Shown piece by piece: positions 9,650 through 18,296 of a stretch of DNA of 18,296 bases. Both the position numbers and the translations under genes were made by a program. Position 1 is the first letter of the stretch. Every line of letters begins with the position of its first letter. The DNA is from a virus (lineage: Duplodnaviria > Heunggongvirae > Uroviricota > Caudoviricetes): the IMG/VR virus record IMGVR_UViG_2529292921_000023. The stretch is one strand, 5' to 3'. Under the pieces are notes generated by a model. It saw only the letters and a program-made list of their open reading frames with translations, did not search any database and was not told the DNA's origin.

Positions 9650-10018
9650 TCACTTAAATTTCGTCGCACGAATAACGTCAATTCCGTTCTCGCTATATCG
9701 AAGAGGGTGCTTACCATCCCTGAGCAGGACAAAGCCTGACATCCCCTCAGGTAGCTGAGCCAGCTTCATCAACGAACGGTTGCGGGGAGACTTCTTATCG
9801 ACCTCAATGGCACACTGCTGGCCGTCTGATGATGTAACCAGGCAATCAATAAACCCTTTACGACCACCGCTAATGCTGATGCTGAAATTGCGTTGCAGAT
9901 GGTATCCCTGAGACTTGATTTTTTTCTGCATCACATAATCGAAAACGACTTTGTCATCGGAGCGAATGAATTGCTCTTCCAGGAGAGTGATTAAATTTTG
10001 CTTCAGGTCTTCACTCAT
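9650..10018 (-). CDS. VRR-NUC-like PD-(D/E)xK nuclease-fold protein
   Basis: 122 aa. GGRKGFIDCLVTSSDGQQCAIEVDKKSP resembles the VRR-NUC pattern G..G.PD.......IEVK. Confidence 0.45.
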   Translation of the reverse strand: MSEDLKQNLITLLEEQFIRSDDKVVFDYVMQKKIKSQGYHLQRNFSISISGGRKGFIDCLVTSSDGQQCAIEVDKKSPRNRSLMKLAQLPEGMSGFVLLRDGKHPLRYSENGIDVIRATKFK

Positions 10019-10267
10019 ACTTTTTTATCCATCTTGTACTAGCTTTCTGGTACAGCCGTTTTTTCAGGGGTATCCCCCTTTAGATCGAGATCTACCTAAC
10101 CTATGTACCCGTCTGTTGGAAAAGCCTGTTCCAGTGCTTCGCACTAACACACGGGCACTCCTCCCCCTCCCCTCCTCTCATTGAATTTTGTGCGTACTCT
10201 TTAACTAGTACAAAAATGCAATGAGATTTGGGATTCAGCCACCGGACACCTTTAAGCCCGGTACCAA

Positions 10268-10561
10268 TCAGGAGCGCGATTGCGTTCCTGCCAGGGGCGG
10301 CTGAGTTGTATACCCCTGTAAAGCTCTGCCCTGATTTCTCACAAACAAGCGGAGCCTTGTGTTTGCTTCGTGCCTTGCTCTGTTCTCCTTGCGGAATGAA
10401 ACAGGCTCAGCGTCAAAAGTGATTTCGTATACCTCCGCATATTTCAGGGCGACCTTCCGTCTCAGTGACGGAGGCAGCCCCTGTAACTGCTGCTGAATCC
10501 ACTCTTCGTCTGCCTGGCAGTGCCTAGATGGCATCTCTGTCTGAACGTAATTCTGGGACAT
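10268..10561 (-). CDS. Hypothetical early protein in the cII position
   Basis: 97-aa ORF 12 nt downstream of the cro-like gene on the same strand. Low-complexity C-terminus. No family recognised. Confidence 0.5.
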   Translation of the reverse strand: MSQNYVQTEMPSRHCQADEEWIQQQLQGLPPSLRRKVALKYAEVYEITFDAEPVSFRKENRARHEANTRLRLFVRNQGRALQGYTTQPPLAGTQSRS

Positions 10562-10573
10562 ACAAGCCCTTCA

Positions 10574-10846
10574 TCATTCGTTTTTCATAACTGCCGCATT
10601 TGTGGCTGTGTGACTTCTACGTAACAAATCAGGGATTGCATCTTCAGGATGGGGATAAAGATCTGGTCTTAACCCATGAGGAGTAACTTTCCATTCCACA
10701 ACTTCACATACACGCAAGACGAAACGAGCAGGAATTGTTCTTTTTGAAAACCATTGGTTCACAGCTTGCGGCGTAACGCCTAGATTTCGCGCTATGGCAT
10801 TTTGTGCAATTAGCTCACGAAGTGCGTCGTAATCATTTCCTTTCAT
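10574..10846 (-). CDS. Cro/YdaS-like HTH regulator
   Basis: 90 aa with HTH LGVTPQAVNQW and motif WKVTPHGLRPDLYP recalled as typical of YdaS-like Cro proteins. Divergent from the CI-like repressor. Confidence 0.7.
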   Translation of the reverse strand: MKGNDYDALRELIAQNAIARNLGVTPQAVNQWFSKRTIPARFVLRVCEVVEWKVTPHGLRPDLYPHPEDAIPDLLRRSHTATNAAVMKNE

Positions 10847-10980
10847 CGCAACCCACCAATCTAAACTTTATAAATTCAAGATTACATCAAGTTTAAATTA
10901 ACATGCAAGTCCACAAAAGATCGAATACACTAAAATCAAGTAAAAATTTATCGAAACCAAGTAACCAGCAAGGATTAACA
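10847..10980. promoter_or_regulatory. Immunity-region divergent promoter/operator (OR-like)
   Basis: AT-rich 134-bp spacer between divergent cro-like and cI-like genes. Repeated ATCAAGT-type motifs at 10887-10893, 10935-10941 and the variant ACCAAGT at 10956-10962. Confidence 0.5.
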
Positions 10981-11670
10981 ATGAAAAACTTAAAGAGCAC
11001 TGAAAATCGAATTACAAAGCTGCTACAGGAGAAAGGCTGGAGCCAAGCAGAGCTGGCCCGAAAATTAGGTGTCAGCGCACAGTCCGTACAGTACTGGACA
11101 ACAGGAAAAACATTTCCAAGGGGAAACCGGCTTGCCCAGTTATCCGAAATAAGTGGTTATCCGCAATCGTGGTTTTTAGGAGAAATCACGTCACGGCAGT
11201 TCTCTTCAAAGGAAAAACATCAAGCAAGAACTGACAGTGTGGTCTTTAACGTGCTCGATGTTGAGTTTAGTTGCGGCGATGGAACACATGTCCGTGGGGA
11301 CTTTATCGATGTAGTTCGCTCAATCGAGCTTGATCCTGAATATGCCCGTCGCCTTGTTGGCAATAGAGCATTTCAAAACATAGAGATTGGTAACGCAAGA
11401 GGAGATAGTATGGCTCCAACAATAGCCCCAGGAGATCTTCTTTTTCTCGATAAAACAGTGAATTACTTTGATGGTGATGGCATTTATGCTTTTTGCTTTG
11501 ATGGTGAATGCTACGTCAAAAGATTACAAAAGATAGGAAGTAAAATCATGGTGTTATCTGATAACCCAAATTACCAATCCTGGAGCATTGAAAAAGATGC
11601 TCTTGAGCTGCTTTATATCCAATCGAAGGTAATCTCATCTGTTCCATTCAATATAAATAGATTTGGTTAA
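10981..11670 (+). CDS. cI: CI-like repressor (N-terminal HTH-XRE, C-terminal LexA/S24 autopeptidase)
   Basis: HTH (WSQAELARKLGVSAQSVQYW) and S24 Ser/Lys region (GDSMAPTIAPGDLLFLD ... CYVKRL). Start placed at ATG 10981 (AAGGA 6 nt upstream) rather than track start 10903, which has no RBS. Confidence 0.85.
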   Translation: MKNLKSTENRITKLLQEKGWSQAELARKLGVSAQSVQYWTTGKTFPRGNRLAQLSEISGYPQSWFLGEITSRQFSSKEKHQARTDSVVFNVLDVEFSCGDGTHVRGDFIDVVRSIELDPEYARRLVGNRAFQNIEIGNARGDSMAPTIAPGDLLFLDKTVNYFDGDGIYAFCFDGECYVKRLQKIGSKIMVLSDNPNYQSWSIEKDALELLYIQSKVISSVPFNINRFG

Positions 11671-11732
11671 TTATTGATTATTAAAGAAAAATTTACAAAT
11701 CAAGTAAAAGAGACGCAGAAATCAATTTTTTC

Positions 11733-11811
11733 TTGACAACTCCATCAATCAAGATCTAACATCACACCATCAATTTTGACTTGATTTATTGTTAATTTTA
11801 AATTGATGGTG
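11733..11811 (+). promoter_or_regulatory. pL/OL-like promoter-operator region for the early-left operon
   Basis: TTGACA (11733-11738), 18 nt, TAACAT (11757-11762). Perfect 11-bp inverted repeat CACCATCAATT (11765-11775) / AATTGATGGTG (11801-11811) flanks a second candidate promoter TTGACT-17-TAAATT. ATCAAG-type motifs recur. Confidence 0.45.
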
Positions 11812-11816
11812 ATTCA

Positions 11817-12245
11817 ATGAAAGATCTGACAACCGCTGAGATATCGAACTTAAACCACTTCGAAAAAGAATCCTTTGCATTAAATATTGCAAATCTGGTA
11901 GGTGCTGCTCGTACTTTCCATTTAATTGATGGTGATCGCTCTAAAGAATTGGGGTTTGAAGTCATGGAGTTTGTTCATGAATACGCCCTGTCTGCTACTT
12001 ATCCATTACATAATCACATAATCAACAAACAACCAAATAAAATCCGCACCCAACGCGAAGCCTGCGGCTTAACAACCGCCGAACTCGCCAGGCTGCTCGA
12101 TCTCGATGAAGAAATTATCATCCAGTGGGAAAGCGGAGAGTACGAACCAACCATCAGCATGCTTATCCCTCTGGCTAATGTTCTTGGCTGTGATCCAATG
12201 TTGTTATTGACTGATGCTTATAAACAAAATCAGGAGGAAGCATAA
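11817..12245 (+). CDS. Hypothetical protein with C-terminal HTH-XRE domain; first gene of the pL-like operon
   Basis: 142 aa. C-terminal HTH (LTTAELARLLDLDEEIIIQWESGEYEPTISMLIPLANVLG). N-terminal ~80 aa unassigned. Confidence 0.6.
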   Translation: MKDLTTAEISNLNHFEKESFALNIANLVGAARTFHLIDGDRSKELGFEVMEFVHEYALSATYPLHNHIINKQPNKIRTQREACGLTTAELARLLDLDEEIIIQWESGEYEPTISMLIPLANVLGCDPMLLLTDAYKQNQEEA

Positions 12246-12246
12246 G

Positions 12247-12438
12247 ATGAAAATGTTCAAAGGCCTTACCAACGAACCGGAGACAGCTTTTCATCACATT
12301 GCCGTACTGCTTGAAGCGGGGTTAATCATTTCGGCTTCCGGTGATGAAGAATGTGATGAACTTTCGGATGATATCTTTTTACTGGCACAACAATACGCCA
12401 AAAGCGCATGCGATGCATTTAAGGAGCAAAGAACATGA
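12247..12438 (+). CDS. Small acidic hypothetical protein (63 aa)
   Basis: AGGAGG 8 nt upstream of ATG 12247. Track start 12214 overlaps the previous gene and is less likely. Stop overlaps the next start (ATGA). Confidence 0.5.
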   Translation: MKMFKGLTNEPETAFHHIAVLLEAGLIISASGDEECDELSDDIFLLAQQYAKSACDAFKEQRT

Positions 12439-12626
12439 TAACTCCATTAAATATTCTTGAGGAAGTGGCGGCACAAATAAAAGAGAATACATCAATGCTT
12501 GAATTTATATTTAAGAATTCGCCCGACCAAGGAGAGACAGACGATTATTTATGCTGTCTCATTCGCTCCATGAATAAGACCTGTGAAATGGCTTACGAGT
12601 ATATAGAAACACTACGCAACGAATAA
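12435..12626 (+). CDS. Small hypothetical protein (63 aa)
   Basis: AAGGAG upstream; ATGA overlap with the previous gene. Confidence 0.5.
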   Translation: MITPLNILEEVAAQIKENTSMLEFIFKNSPDQGETDDYLCCLIRSMNKTCEMAYEYIETLRNE

Positions 12627-12708
12627 AGAACACTCAGTAAAAAATCACACATAAAAACATGACGGCCTCTGGTCGTGGATTTCCACAACCAGAAAATAAT
12701 GGTGATGC

Positions 12709-12807
12709 ATGAAAAATAGAAACGCTTATAAAACCGCATTATTAATGGCTAATGCAGGATACTGGTCAGTTGCAATACTGTTTCTCAGAAAAGCATACGG
12801 GAAATAA
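12709..12807 (+). CDS. Possible 32-aa hydrophobic peptide
   Basis: Below the ORF-track size cutoff. MKNRNAYKTALLMANAGYWSVAILFLRKAYGK; weak RBS. Confidence 0.2.
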   Translation: MKNRNAYKTALLMANAGYWSVAILFLRKAYGK

Positions 12808-12810
12808 CAA

Positions 12811-13170
12811 ATGGCATGTACAACCATTTATAAAGATCGTCGCCGCATGGTAACAGCGGCACTCCGGCGGATGCAACGTAAAACAGGTAGTAATCTGCTC
12901 GTCGTTGACCTCCCGGACGGAGAAATAACAACGATAGAAATAACTGAACAGTTCATGAACCAGTTGTTATTACGATTTGAGGGTCTTACCCGTGTTGAAT
13001 ATGGACGGACGGAAGGAGAAGCAACAATCCGTACCGCATACCAGAATGCCATCGGTATTAATCAACACACGGAATATCTCACTGAATCAGGGAAACTGAT
13101 AGTGGACGGCCTTTTAAAAGAGGTTGTTGACTACGTAAAAGAGAAATATATCAGTGGAGGAATTAACTGA
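12811..13170 (+). CDS. Hypothetical protein (119 aa)
   Basis: ORF in the operon frame series; stop overlaps the next start (ATGA). Confidence 0.5.
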   Translation: MACTTIYKDRRRMVTAALRRMQRKTGSNLLVVDLPDGEITTIEITEQFMNQLLLRFEGLTRVEYGRTEGEATIRTAYQNAIGINQHTEYLTESGKLIVDGLLKEVVDYVKEKYISGGIN

Positions 13171-13379
13171 TGTCTGATTTATCCCCTCTTATACACGAAA
13201 AAGTACAGATCATTATGACGATTGAAAATGGTCAGGTAATAAATACCCGTAAAGTTCACAATAACGAGATGATTGCCAGCATGGATACCTTCTTATGGAT
13301 AGCAAAGAAAGCGGGATATCAGGTAATCGCTCCTGATCTGGAGGAAATCGGTGACATTAACAGCAATACGAATTCCTGA
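13170..13379 (+). CDS. Hypothetical protein (69 aa)
   Basis: GGAGG about 9 nt upstream; ATGA coupling to the previous gene. Confidence 0.55.
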   Translation: MSDLSPLIHEKVQIIMTIENGQVINTRKVHNNEMIASMDTFLWIAKKAGYQVIAPDLEEIGDINSNTNS

Positions 13380-13572
13380 GTGGGTGCACCTGCAGGCGGT
13401 CCGTGTTCTCCGCCAGTTCAGAGCCAGACGAATTCATCCCTGTCGTATGCACGGCTCCGGAAACCTGAGTCTGAGGGTTAATCGCCGCTGGCGGCTGCTG
13501 TCCCGAGACGGCGGCCAGAACTGGGAAGTAATGAGCCATGAACGATACAGCAAAGTTAAGGACCGGAAATGA
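13351..13572 (+). CDS. Arg-rich small protein (73 aa), GTG start, overlapping the upstream gene end
   Basis: GGAGG 6 nt upstream of GTG 13351. Basic, Arg-rich (SLRVNRRWRLLSRDGG). A competing antisense ORF is low-complexity. Confidence 0.4.
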   Translation: MTLTAIRIPEWVHLQAVRVLRQFRARRIHPCRMHGSGNLSLRVNRRWRLLSRDGGQNWEVMSHERYSKVKDRK

Positions 13573-13605
13573 ACAATAAACCTTCAAACCAAAAGGAGAG
13601 TATTG

Positions 13606-14184
13606 ATGATTAATTCAACCATTACCCCTGAACCTACATTAACAGGCATCCGTTTTGGTAATCGAATTATTGGTTATTCAACTGCGGTTCGCCAGATCGA
13701 CAACGGTAACTATGACAAACGAATTCCGGACGGGCTCGATCTGATAGCTTGCATTATGGAAGGGATTGAAAGCGGCTGGTTTATGCCGTGTATTGAAAAA
13801 CAAATCATCCTATGGCGCTGGCTTGTTGTCGCCGTGTTCATTGCTGAGGAGCAGGAGAAGAACGGGACTGTCGATGTTCAGAATGACAAGGGCGGCGTAG
13901 ATACAGCCGTTGTATACACAGGAAAACCCGGTTCAATCAGCATTTATCCATGGTCTGAGCGCTTCGCGCTCGCTAACCATATCGAGGCGGGCGCAATTGA
14001 AAAATACGGGCCTGACGTTGGCCAGCAGATGGCGCTGCGTATGTATCAGGACATGGTTGTAACTGACGAGAAATGCGGATTCAGGCTGTCAGCGATGGGC
14101 CGGGAGGGACTCAACATACTACATGACAGCTTCATTGAACTGATTCAGAAAGACGGTATGCCAGACATGCCGGTTATGCACTGA
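13606..14184 (+). CDS. Hypothetical protein (192 aa)
   Basis: AGGAG 7 nt upstream of ATG 13606. No motif recognised. Confidence 0.6.
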   Translation: MINSTITPEPTLTGIRFGNRIIGYSTAVRQIDNGNYDKRIPDGLDLIACIMEGIESGWFMPCIEKQIILWRWLVVAVFIAEEQEKNGTVDVQNDKGGVDTAVVYTGKPGSISIYPWSERFALANHIEAGAIEKYGPDVGQQMALRMYQDMVVTDEKCGFRLSAMGREGLNILHDSFIELIQKDGMPDMPVMH

Positions 14185-14195
14185 GGTGGACGAAA

Positions 14196-14942
14196 ATGAA
14201 CATAGTAACGATCAATAACAAACAGCTTCCGGCAGTCGAATATCGCGGTCAGCGTGTTGTGACGCTGGCGATGATTGATGAAGTCCACCAGCGACCGGAA
14301 GGAACAGCGCGTGCAGCATTCAACCGAAACCGTGAGCATTTCATCAGCGGTGTGGATTATGCCGAATTAGGTGCGGACGTAATACGTACGGACCTCCCGG
14401 AAGGAACATTCTCTAAATTTGCACCATCAGGGATTGTACTTTTTGAATCAGGTTACCTGATGTTGACGAAGCCATTCAATGACGCCCTTGCCTGGCAGGT
14501 TCAGCGCGAACTGGTTAACAGCTACTTCCGCACTCGCACACCGCTAACGGAAATCGAGATGATCGCTGCGATAGCCGCCGACGCTGTTCGTCAACAGAAG
14601 CGCCTGAATCATGTGGAAGAACAGCTCGAAACAGTCACAGAAGCGGTGGAAACCATCAAACGCGGAAATATGCGCGCCGGATATGTCGGTTATCGCCAGG
14701 TGGTCGCCAAAAGCGGAATGACTGATGCTAAGTGCCGCAATCTGGTCAATGCCTACAGCATCCCAACCGATACGCACGAATTTATGACACCAGATGGTCT
14801 TCTTTCGCGCCGGGCTATCGTGGAGCTGGAGCCATTCATGAAAGCATTTCATCAGATGATGTCAGAGGCAGAGCCACGTGGTACCCGCTGGTATCACCCG
14901 AAGATGGGGCTGTTTCAGGTGATTGGTTGGGAGGGTAAATAA
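14196..14942 (+). CDS. Phage antirepressor-like protein (ORF6N-type N-terminal domain)
   Basis: N-terminal QLPAVEYRGQRVVTLAMIDEVHQRPEGTARAAFNRNREHFISGVDY resembles the ORF6N antirepressor N-terminal domain (from memory). Confidence 0.5.
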   Translation: MNIVTINNKQLPAVEYRGQRVVTLAMIDEVHQRPEGTARAAFNRNREHFISGVDYAELGADVIRTDLPEGTFSKFAPSGIVLFESGYLMLTKPFNDALAWQVQRELVNSYFRTRTPLTEIEMIAAIAADAVRQQKRLNHVEEQLETVTEAVETIKRGNMRAGYVGYRQVVAKSGMTDAKCRNLVNAYSIPTDTHEFMTPDGLLSRRAIVELEPFMKAFHQMMSEAEPRGTRWYHPKMGLFQVIGWEGK

Positions 14943-15280
14943 TGTCACTCATTACACAAAATTTCCGCCTCAATGCGCTGGCAAATCAGTATGCGGCGGC
15001 ACTGCACAACCACATATCCGCCACCAGCGGTGGTCATTTCCTGATTAATGTCAATGGGCAATCCATACGAGTAAACATCATCGGTGGGGTTAAAGGCATC
15101 AGGGACTTAATCGATGGTTATGCTCTGAAGGCTATCAAAGAAAATTACCCCCAATGGGAAGCCGTTGGTATTCAACTGTTAAGCAAATGCGTTCGTGGAA
15201 ACGAGCTGACGCAAAGCGGCAAAGAAATCTGGCAGAGCATGGTCAACGACATGAGCGATACCGTTATGGGGAACATGTAA
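14942..15280 (+). CDS. Hypothetical protein (112 aa)
   Basis: GGGAGGG upstream; TAATG overlap with the previous gene. Confidence 0.55.
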   Translation: MSLITQNFRLNALANQYAAALHNHISATSGGHFLINVNGQSIRVNIIGGVKGIRDLIDGYALKAIKENYPQWEAVGIQLLSKCVRGNELTQSGKEIWQSMVNDMSDTVMGNM

Positions 15281-15502
15281 ATGAAAATCCAATACCAGGA
15301 CTATGGCGCCGTAGCGAACATCGTGATCACCAGTTCCTGCCTGACATTGCAAAAGCATAACCGCGTTGTTGATGCGGTGCTGTTTAATGTACAGGGGATC
15401 TCTGAAAACCGCAGCGGCTTTTTCTGGGTTAAGTCATCGTTGTCAGGAAAAACACGCGACATCCTGCGCGCCTACAAAATCGTACAGCGGGAGGCAAAGT
15501 GA
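15281..15502 (+). CDS. Hypothetical protein (73 aa)
   Basis: Starts immediately after the previous stop; GGGGAA upstream. Confidence 0.5.
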   Translation: MKIQYQDYGAVANIVITSSCLTLQKHNRVVDAVLFNVQGISENRSGFFWVKSSLSGKTRDILRAYKIVQREAK

Positions 15503-15597
15503 TGAAGTCATTCCTCCTGTCCATACTGTTTAGTCTGCTGCTGGCGTCCGTCGTTTTCGGTACGCTGATTGAATATAAATTTTTAATGAATTACTGA
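15502..15597 (+). CDS. Possible 31-aa single-TMD peptide
   Basis: Below the ORF-track size cutoff. ATGA overlap with the upstream gene. MKSFLLSILFSLLLASVVFGTLIEYKFLMNY. Confidence 0.3.
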   Translation: MKSFLLSILFSLLLASVVFGTLIEYKFLMNY

Positions 15598-15779
15598 GGT
15601 GCGGGGTGGGCAAGATCAAAAACCCAGTTGTACTTATCCATAAGCGAGAAAATAGTGACTCCTACGCCGTTACAATCACCTGCGGTAGCCAGAACTATCA
15701 CGACGCCGTTCTGATGGCGTCGATGGAACTGGATATGAGTGACGATGATGTCGATACCTAGAGTAAAACAGGCTATTAC

Positions 15780-16235
15780 ATGGCTGAAGAAATCGAGCGA
15801 CTGAAACAAGCACTTTCCGCTGCGGAAAATAATCTGATTGATTCCGAATGCCTCGTAGCTGAATTAAGCAAAGCAAAGGATCACGCATATGGGCTGGTCG
15901 ACACATACGACTGGCAACGTCAGCGTCTCCACGCAGCCGCTGAGAAAGTCCTCAAATGGTGCAGACAAGAAGCTGAACACCGTACCGGCGATCCAGAGAA
16001 AGCAGAAAACTATGCGTGCGTTAAAGAACTACGCGACGCATTAACTTTTTGCAAAAGTTCTGAAAGCAGCAAGAAGAAAGGCCTGACTATCACCCTGCCC
16101 GATATCACATCAAAGGCATTCTGGAGCGGTACCGGAAAAAACGCAAAATTCCATCCGGCAACCTATAAACGCTGGGTGAAAGAAGCTATTAAACGGGATT
16201 GTGTTATTGCCGGGATCGGCGTGGAGGTGAAATGA
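15780..16235 (+). CDS. Hypothetical protein (151 aa)
   Basis: Protein-like composition with coiled-coil-like N-terminus; weak RBS. Confidence 0.5.
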   Translation: MAEEIERLKQALSAAENNLIDSECLVAELSKAKDHAYGLVDTYDWQRQRLHAAAEKVLKWCRQEAEHRTGDPEKAENYACVKELRDALTFCKSSESSKKKGLTITLPDITSKAFWSGTGKNAKFHPATYKRWVKEAIKRDCVIAGIGVEVK

Positions 16236-16318
16236 TGAATTGGCCTGAAGCATTCACCGCAGTAGGAGTTGCAATAGCGGTGGCATTTATTCTGTATTCG
16301 CTTTTCCGCTGGGGATAA
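16232..16318 (+). CDS. Possible 28-aa hydrophobic peptide
   Basis: Below the ORF-track size cutoff. ATG overlaps the upstream stop. MMNWPEAFTAVGVAIAVAFILYSLFRWG. Confidence 0.25.
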   Translation: MMNWPEAFTAVGVAIAVAFILYSLFRWG

Positions 16319-16322
16319 AGGA

Positions 16323-16565
16323 ATGTTCGCTCTGATTCAACGTGGTCAGATATACACCGATAGTGCTGGCTACCCGATAAAAATTATTCGCTGCATAAAC
16401 AACACTGTGTTGTACAGAAGAATGGATGGGCGAACACAGTCGGTAAAAATAAACGATTTTAATGAACTGTTTGAACGGATCGATCACCAGGAATACCGAC
16501 AAATTCTGGCAGAAACAGAGCAGGAAGCTCATCTGAAAAAATTACGAGCCATGAAAAGGAAGTAA
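16323..16565 (+). CDS. Hypothetical protein (80 aa)
   Basis: AAGGA upstream of ATG. Confidence 0.5.
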   Translation: MFALIQRGQIYTDSAGYPIKIIRCINNTVLYRRMDGRTQSVKINDFNELFERIDHQEYRQILAETEQEAHLKKLRAMKRK

Positions 16566-16568
16566 AGA

Positions 16569-16715
16569 ATGAATAAAGCATTTGAACGATGGGTCCACCA
16601 GCGTTACGGCAATCGCTATGACCTGACACGAGATGTTGACGGTTTCTACTGTCGTGAAATTGTGAAACGAATGTTTGAAGTGTGGTGCCACTGCCGTGGG
16701 CTGAGTGTTGTGTGA
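16569..16715 (+). CDS. Small Cys-containing hypothetical protein (48 aa)
   Basis: Below the ORF-track size cutoff. AGGAAG 7 nt upstream. MNKAFERWVHQRYGNRYDLTRDVDGFYCREIVKRMFEVWCHCRGLSVV. Confidence 0.4.
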   Translation: MNKAFERWVHQRYGNRYDLTRDVDGFYCREIVKRMFEVWCHCRGLSVV

Positions 16716-16722
16716 GGTTGGC

Positions 16723-16977
16723 ATGCAGACAATCATCTATCAGATAACCCCCAGCAAATGGTGTACGGAGAGAGTCCTCATTGCATCAACAGGGCTAAAG
16801 CCTGGCACCATTGAGCGGGCAAGAAGAAAGTCATGGATGCAGGGAAAAGAATACCGCCATTACGCTGTAGAAGGTGATCCGGGGCACTACAGTGAATGCC
16901 TGTACAACATCGAAGAAATTATGCGATGGATCGAAAACCAGAAACAACCAGGTGCCAAAAATGCAAGTTCCGGTTAA
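16723..16977 (+). CDS. xis: Excisionase-like protein
   Basis: Immediately upstream of int. Pattern like lambda Xis (W, Arg cluster, GKEY versus GREY). GAGG 7 nt upstream of ATG 16723. Confidence 0.55.
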   Translation: MQTIIYQITPSKWCTERVLIASTGLKPGTIERARRKSWMQGKEYRHYAVEGDPGHYSECLYNIEEIMRWIENQKQPGAKNASSG

Positions 16978-17010
16978 CCTGTTAATGCTCCTGGACGTCT
17001 GGGAGGTTTA

Positions 17011-18296
17011 ATGAGTAACGCATCATACCCGACAGGCGTTGAAAACCATGGAGGATCACTCCGTATATGGTTTCACTATAATGGCAAACGTGTCAGAGAA
17101 AACCTCGGTGTTCCTGACACAGCCAAAAACCGGAAGATCGCTGGTGAACTTCGCACTTCCGTTTGTTTTGCAATCAGAATGGGGAGTTTCGACTACGCCG
17201 CGCAGTTCCCTAATTCCCCTAACCTGAAACACTTTGGTCTGGGAAAAAGAGAGATAACCGTTAAGGCACTTTCGGAAAAATGGTTGGACCTTAAGAAAAT
17301 TGAGATTTGTGCGAATGCACTTAACCGTTACCAGTCAGTAATTAAAAACATGTTACCAATGTTAGGTGAAAAAAACTGGTTTCATCCATAACAAAAGAGG
17401 ATTTACTTTTCGTAAGGAGAGATTTGTTGACCGGTTACCAAAAGCTTTCTAATGGAAAGACTTCTTCCATAAAAGGGCGCTCAGTGGTCACGGTAAACTA
17501 CTATATGACAACCATAGCTGGAATGTTTCAATTTGCAACAGATAATGGTTATACCTCAGGAAACCCATTTAACGGTCTGGCTCCCTTAAAAAAGTCCAAG
17601 GTAAAACCAGATCCTCTCACCCGTGACGAATTTATTCGTTTTATTGAGGCTTGCCGTCATCAACAAACAAAAAACCTGTGGATTCTCGCTGTATACACGG
17701 GTATTCGTCACGGGGAGTTGGTATCGCTGGCATGGGAAGATATAGACCTTAAAGCAAGGACTATAACCATCCGTAGAAATTATACAAAACTTGGCGAATT
17801 CACTCCACCAAAAACCGATGCAGGCACCGGAAGGACAATTCATCTGGTTCAACCAGCTATTGATGCTCTTAAAAGCCAGGCGGAAATGACCATGCTTGGA
17901 AAGCAACATTCTGTAGAGGTGAAGCAGAGGGAATATGGGAGAACTGCTGTGCATAAATGCACTTTTGTTTTTAGTCCTCAGGTAACAAAACAGCAGCAGT
18001 TGTCCGGACCTCACTACAAGGTTGACTCCATCAGGGAGTCATGGACAAGTATCTTAAAACGCGCAGGTCTGAGACACAGAAAATCGTACCAATCCAGGCA
18101 TACTTATGCATGCTGGTCACTTGCCGCAGGAGCTAATCCTAGTTTTATCGCAAGCCAGATGGGCCACACAAACGCACAAATGGTATTCAATGTTTACGGA
18201 GCATGGATGAAAGACAACAATCACGAACAGATAGAACTCCTTAACAAAAGACTATCTGAAAGTGTCCCATGTATGCCCCATAAGAAAGTTGGGTAA
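17011..18296 (+). pseudogene. int: Lambda-family tyrosine integrase, split by a frameshift in an A7 run
   Basis: N-terminal arm/core-binding part is ORF 17011..17391. Catalytic domain is ORF 17424..18296 in another frame, with Arg in TGIRHGEL, a His/Arg pair in HRKSYQSRHTYA, and Tyr in VYGAW. The second frame is open back to TGA 17367-17369, and both frames cross the A7 run 17369-17375, so one extra A would fuse them (...GEKKLVSSITKEDLL...). Confidence 0.8.

Follow-up and report, generated by a model that had tools for sequence, protein, structure and literature searches.

On balance, we think that one of eight consecutive As in the integrase gene (int) of this prophage was lost in the DNA of its E. 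coli host strain. This would be a real, recent deletion that is private to the strain. By the window, we mean the whole stretch of 18,296 nt that we analyzed; its main features are:

1..1352, + strand: end of an IS21-family element at the contig start (IstA C-terminus at 16-507, IstB at 504-1286; IstB_IS21, 373 bits)
1337..1729, - strand: DUF1441 gene, with its 3' end cut off by the IS21-family element (PF07278, positions 3-101 of 147)
16723..16977, + strand: excisionase gene xis, 84 aa, DUF1233 (PF06806, 101 bits), intact and immediately 5' of int
17011..18296, + strand: integrase pseudogene (int), 1286 nt versus 1287 nt in intact alleles
17011..17391, + strand: ORF1, the 126-aa N-terminal fragment (Pfam PF12167, Arm-DNA-bind_2, 87.1 bits)
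17369..17375, + strand: A7 homopolymer, the site of the missing base; A8 in intact alleles
17370..18296, + strand: ORF2 frame, with the remaining core-binding domain and the catalytic domain (Pfam PF00589, 67.1 bits)

The A was most likely lost by strand slippage at replication, and very recently, in the strain that underlies the assembly AIEW01000041.1. Translation would then halt after 126 residues, and at best there would be a restart product from the TTG at 17427. Neither the arm-binding fragment nor any catalytic restart product would have a complete core-binding domain. We therefore expect Int-dependent excision (attL x attR, with Xis) to fail and the prophage to be fixed in mlrA.

The integrase frame is broken at a run of seven As

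The initial annotation described an integrase that is split into an N-terminal ORF and a catalytic ORF in another frame, with both frames passing through an A7 run, and it expected that one extra A would restore a protein of about 430 aa. All of this holds. Positions 17360-17378 read TGTTAGGTG AAAAAAA CTG, which places the seven As at exactly 17369-17375. ORF1 crosses the tract as GAA AAA AAC, with an A_AAA_AAC heptamer at 17370-17376, and ends at 17391. The second frame is shut by a TGA at 17367-17369; from 17370 onwards it has no stop until the TAA at 18294-18296. Its start is placed by gene callers at TTG 17427 (289 aa) or at TTG 17424 (290 aa). The frames overlap by only 22 nt (17370-17391), with the A7 run inside, and therefore the event that restores the frame must fall there. 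With one A added, the gene encodes a 428-aa integrase with both Pfam domains: Arm-DNA-bind_2 at residues 7-70 (85.7 bits) and Phage_integrase at residues 203-396 (66 bits).

Without the added A, each fragment has one Pfam domain. ORF1 has the arm-type DNA-binding domain (85.7-87.1 bits for PF12167, depending on whether the restored protein or the fragment is scored) and the beginning of the core-binding region. Its C-terminus reads ...GEKNWFHP*, with the final five residues (NWFHP) read in the wrong frame. The catalytic domain scores 66-67 bits against PF00589, whose curated cut-off is 27.1, and alignment to Tn1549 Int identifies the catalytic motifs: SRHTYA (the RHT of box II), MGHTN (GHxN), and NVYG (the nucleophile Y). 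Lambda Int and Tn1549 Int share the arm-binding, core-binding, and catalytic domains and the RHT, GH, and Y motifs with the window's integrase, but Tn1549 Int is distant (E = 1e-7) and the window's arm domain is of the PF12167 family. The relatives with structures in the PDB (Tn1549 Int, XerA, and lambda Int) are all distant and align across the catalytic domain. No single unbroken frame contains all of the integrase domains in the window. Because the A7 run interrupts the reading frame, we consider the gene to be a pseudogene of a tyrosine recombinase, or phage integrase of the lambda Int type.

An A7 run is commonplace in itself: the window contains five A7, three T7, and three A8 runs. What is distinctive about this one is that it coincides with a frame break and that the orthologues have A8.

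The intact xis gene just upstream has a counterpart in strain CE10 that is annotated as xisR. A scan of 16500-18296 for promoters and terminators found nothing relevant. There is also a strong SD-like AAGGAG at 17414-17419, 7 nt ahead of TTG 17427. This motif belongs to ordinary coding sequence (VRRDLL), and in the frameshifted allele ribosomes could use it to translate the 289-aa catalytic fragment separately.

Intact relatives point to an mlrA (yehV)-type integrase

Over the whole gene, the window's int is 97.8-99.9% identical in nucleotide sequence to intact int genes of 1287 nt. In a phage collection, it matches VT1-Sakai, phi330, PhiR5_1, YYZ-2008, Stx2a_1447, BP-4795, and JLK-2012, and all 12 of the close phage records have a 1287-nt int. 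Another 539 matching records are from finished E. coli genomes. Once the length of the run is normalized, the window's gene agrees with the CE10 allele at all 1287 positions.

In CE10, the gene order is xisR, int (WP_000063649.1), mlrA, yohO, and yehWXY, and in AIEW01000041.1 (L106), mlrA also comes after int. The identity of int together with the order of xisR, int, and mlrA in CE10 places it in the clade of integrases that target mlrA (yehV). These comparisons identify the window's gene as the VT1-Sakai/BP-4795/YYZ-2008-type integrase of prophages that are inserted at mlrA. If we define the clade by at least 95% identity to the VT1-Sakai or BP-4795 int, with mlrA adjoining, then the observed identity is 98.7-99.7% and mlrA does adjoin. 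Also, the integrases of VT1-Sakai (Sp15), BP-4795, YYZ-2008, phi330, Stx2a_1447, and CE10 are in the same xis-int module as in the window, and in genomes mlrA lies downstream.

These relatives differ from the window at the tract. The VT1-Sakai/BP-4795-type genes have A8 and encode one protein of 428 aa, whereas in the window the tract is A7 and the gene is split into two ORFs; in the alignment, A8 versus A7 is the sole local difference from the intact orthologues. The initial annotation proposed just this comparison with related prophage integrases, and it would have been undermined by orthologues that naturally have two ORFs. Instead the orthologues have A8 and 1287 nt, and none of the ~480 near-identical genes that we examined has two ORFs. 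Our search of the literature turned up no specific description of a frameshift in integrases of the yehV/mlrA type.

Further away, a sister integrase of the yecE type (71% amino acid identity) reads GGSR where the mlrA clade reads GEKK, and it has no A-run. We also noticed a divergent int allele with 131 substitutions (L081; JABACX010000073.1) that has A7 as well. In place of mlrA, genes for NleG, NleF, and OspG-type effectors come after it, which suggests another site of insertion or an exchange region that carries effectors.

A7 is private to one of seven near-identical assemblies

The window is contig AIEW01000041.1 of GCA_000249075.2: its positions 5780-18296 are 100% identical to that record, and position 1 of the window is position 2 of the record. 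The record is presumably from the enteropathogenic (EPEC) strain DEC1B, because AIEV is DEC1A. Six sibling prophages at mlrA (L105, L107, L109, L110, L112, and L113) differ from it by just 1-5 substitutions per 15-20 kb. Besides one gap at an alignment edge, beside a primase-helicase deletion in L109, the A-run is the only indel relative to these six siblings. All six have A8, and A7 is private to AIEW01000041.1 among the seven near-identical assemblies.

A Logan assembly of SRR490664 is 100% identical across 11.6 kb and shares a strain-specific SNP. It also has A7, and therefore A7 is the consensus of the reads, not the product of one assembler. SRR490664 probably contains the reads of the strain behind AIEW01000041.1, so the two assemblies are not independent evidence about the DNA.

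We ruled out that AIEW01000041.1 is generally unreliable at homopolymers. There are no gaps relative to E. coli F719 over 12,675 nt of the window, and the A-run is the only 1-nt indel relative to the siblings in 20 kb. Relative to DEC1A, there is only a 3-nt in-frame indel in 1353-7084. Given these two comparisons, the relatives agree with the window at its three other A8 runs and at its A7 and T7 runs within 1353-16718.

A7 recurs elsewhere at low frequency

We counted the lengths of the tract in several collections. For the finished genomes, the counts are of exact 86-, 87-, and 88-mers (for A7, A8, and A9).

Finished RefSeq E. coli records: A7 1, A8 406, A9 0
IMG/VR contigs: A7 3, A8 69, A9 0, A10 0
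JGI metagenome contigs: A7 0, A8 14, A9 0, A10 0
Contigs in an exact-protein index: A7 125, A8 at least 1000 (for one A8 allele only), A9 8, A10 1

The exact-protein index contains no A6 or A5 int products, and a scan of the GTDB species-representative genomes for the tract site gave no match.

The lone A7 record among the finished genomes is FDAARGOS_943 (NZ_CP065615.1), whose int pseudogene (I6H00_RS01310) is also at mlrA, is described by PGAP as "frameshifted," and has gone from A8 to A7 at the identical site. FDAARGOS_943 has a different allele of int (24 substitutions), and its prophage is far more degraded than that of the window and is riddled with IS elements. Its A7 is an event independent of the window's. 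An NCTC assembly that was independently sequenced and is closely related to FDAARGOS_943 (3 mismatches in 10.5 kb), but differs in IS content, has A7 too.

Altogether, 11 alleles of int were found with A7. Eight of these have an A8 twin that is identical elsewhere, and all 11 are free of further defects. In eight A7 carriers, 4.8-9 kb of chromosomal flank lacks one-nucleotide indels. On the other hand, two carriers (L078 and L079) have extra one-base homopolymer deletions in core genes, and in a third (L117) the flanking genes are broken; these patterns are typical of long-read error, and therefore part of the recurrence of A7 is artefact. The occurrence of A7 on 11 allelic backgrounds shows that the A8 tract is a real and recurrent hotspot for deletion by slippage, which also draws artefacts, some of them from long reads.

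The prophage is cryptic and decaying

The window's prophage is cryptic and is decaying under relaxed selection, and in such a prophage a real int frameshift would be unremarkable. The suggestion of the initial annotation that the frameshift locks the prophage in place adds little, as an IS21-family element already truncates the DUF1441 gene. Homology to the DEC1A prophage begins at 1353, which puts the junction of the IS element and the prophage at 1352/1353, and in DEC1A the DUF1441 gene is intact (175 aa). We take DUF1441 to be a packaging gene, judging from its position. Its truncation is a lesion of the same prophage that is independent of the int frameshift. The IS21-family element itself is 100% identical to an IS copy in the sibling L105.

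The related prophages have lesions of their own. In L111 (AIEY01000045.1), an IS66-family element at 11333-13948 lies in about codon 21 of int, with an 8-bp target duplication that is equivalent to 17074-17081 of the window; here, int was inactivated by a separate event within the same lineage. An IS21-family element is inserted in a small early gene adjoining the cro-like gene in both L105 (2706-4507) and L111 (2958-4759). The junction in L105 has a 5-bp overlap at the equivalent of 10373-10377, and the insertion in L111 is similar. DEC1A (L101) and L109 have a 1.1-kb deletion, equivalent to 7085-8181 of the window, that fuses the genes for the primase (toprim) and the helicase.

Outside the window, ~3.8-5 kb downstream of int, the chromosomal gene yehY is split into ORFs of 223/235 aa and 149 aa in L105-L107, L109, L110, L113, and L114; it encodes 385 aa in L111, L112, and other E. 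coli.

The prophage is also a mosaic. Its early region (2546-16718) is 98.6-99.4% identical to that of Stx2f-type prophages (phi467 and F719), and when L108 is compared as well, the part left of 16718 is 98.6-99.8% identical to these prophages, which are integrated at yecE. Position 16718 is the junction between this region, on the left, and the mlrA-type xis-int module, on the right. F719 and L108 have this early region next to a yecE-type integrase instead. The integration module has been exchanged precisely at the start of xis. Between its antiterminator side and its lysis cassette, phi467 has an stx2f operon and tRNA genes; at 3761-4049 of the window these are absent, and ARAGORN found no tRNA genes in the window.

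A few genes of the early region vary as well. At 15606-16235, the window has ORFs of 51 and 151 aa where phi467 and many prophages of E. coli and Salmonella have one gene of 209 aa; an in-frame stop after 15761 causes the split. The product of the 151-aa ORF (15780-16235) is found on 28 contigs, and therefore the split is common to the sibling strains and F719. A 310-aa ORF at 4176-5108 is rare and is found in DEC1A. Compared to the window, F719, and DEC1A, the record for phi467 (L075; LN997803.1) has one-base changes in homopolymers at 4546-4552, 5007-5014, and 13653, and two of these three changes break the 310-aa ORF into two "hypothetical proteins." These differences are probably errors or mutations in LN997803.1.

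Other explanations for the split

The initial annotation left the choice between a real inactivating slip and a homopolymer sequencing error, and both stand as alternatives, with several results leaning to the slip. If it were an error, then the integrase of the strain would truly be intact, with A8, and the undercall of one A in the reads would have been carried into both assemblies. An A7 that is seen in only one of seven near-identical siblings is the pattern expected of an error, and A7 is much less frequent among finished genomes (1 in 407) than among draft-derived IMG/VR contigs (3 in 72); because of these two points, we still regard an error as a serious possibility, although the less probable one. 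Furthermore, an artefactual change from A8 to A7 is accompanied by other damage in L078, L079, and L117, as described above, and suspicious or doubtful frameshifts have been flagged in other DEC draft genomes (PMC5592225). If the data of SRR490664 are of the 454 type, consensus undercalls at 8-mers do occur. However, 20 kb of AIEW01000041.1, including three A8 runs, has no further homopolymer indel; the re-assembly of SRR490664 gives A7 too, albeit probably from the same reads; clean assemblies of many other strains carry A7; and int and other genes have been inactivated, really and independently, in sibling prophages. We lean towards a real deletion because of the A7 in the SRR490664 assembly, the lack of any other indel in the contig, and these independent events of decay.

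Could the two ORFs be functional instead? The split might be regulatory, with full-length Int made by -1 frameshifting on A_AAA_AAC or by insertion of an A during transcription. The ORF1 frame, GAA AAA AAC, does contain a canonical X_XXY_YYZ heptamer, from which a -1 shift leads into the frame of the catalytic domain, and -1 sites of the dnaX and IS3 types also have a slippery A_AAA_AAN at an ORF overlap. In an E. coli expression vector, C-AAA-AAA gave 25-60% of -1 frameshifting (PMC1851650), and an A8 run in human apoB yields about a tenth of full-length product through transcriptional slippage (PMC1088944). There are also pseudogenes with an ORF broken at poly-A in which an extra A in the mRNA would restore the protein (Baranov et al. 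2005, PMC1088944; Citrobacter tssM, PMC4256274). But the two-ORF form is not conserved: the single-ORF form with A8 is the rule, by 406 to 1, and every A7 allele that was tested is intact outside of the tract, usually with an A8 twin. Unlike the dnaX and IS3-type sites, the window lacks a conserved overlap, a stimulatory hairpin or pseudoknot, and a correctly spaced SD: the 84 nt downstream have a minimum free energy of -14.2 kcal/mol as compared to a mean of -14.3 for shuffled sequences (z = 0.04), Rfam gives no match, and an SD-like AGGTGA abuts the A7 run instead of being ~10 nt upstream. As for transcription, a 7-nt run is below the length of ~9 nt for efficient slippage, and the surveyed cases have A/T runs of nine (or eight); in many bacteria, it is at 9 nt that selection acts against slippage-prone runs or that such runs are used for expression (PMC1088944). 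Given the single-ORF homologues, the lack of downstream structure, and the lack of an Rfam match, we ruled out a programmed -1 frameshift. A regulatory split is the explanation that we find hardest to believe, even though a small leak of full-length Int from A_AAA_AAC, by ribosomal or transcriptional slippage, is plausible. A related idea is that A8 is a selected contingency repeat that reversibly switches the integrase and so controls the exit of the prophage from mlrA. Versions with A7, A8, A9, and A10 are all found; A7 arose many times, each time on an allele without another defect; and because prophages in mlrA affect curli and biofilm, having been linked to less of both (PMC3874044, PMC5931665), a switch would have a phenotype. 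Yet the tract is very stable, both in the finished genomes and in the six siblings, and we saw no reversion. The yecE-type sister integrase has no such tract, which led us to reject a conserved and selected one, and alleles with a fresh-looking A7 are expected equally from dead-end mutations and from artefacts. We think that a contingency repeat is very improbable, and we are just as doubtful that the recurrent slips from A8 to A7 on otherwise perfect alleles form a reversible or leaky lock on excision. If there were such a lock, then leaky Int, from -1 slippage or from stuttering of RNA polymerase, would tune the retention of the prophage in mlrA, a biofilm regulator gene.

Implications

The frameshift in int is an ordinary gene-killing slip in a homopolymer, or possibly a read error. 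It involves no new mechanism, this type of frameshift is already in public annotation, and its practical weight is small. For annotation, the split should be described as one frameshifted int pseudogene and not as two genes. More broadly, the A8 tract is the recurrent breakpoint of the mlrA-type integrase clade in public assemblies. Because some of the A7 cases are long-read artefacts, counts of "defective" mlrA prophages that are based on draft genomes need care. If the deletion that we favor is real, then this prophage would be unable to excise, and mlrA would stay permanently interrupted in the strain.
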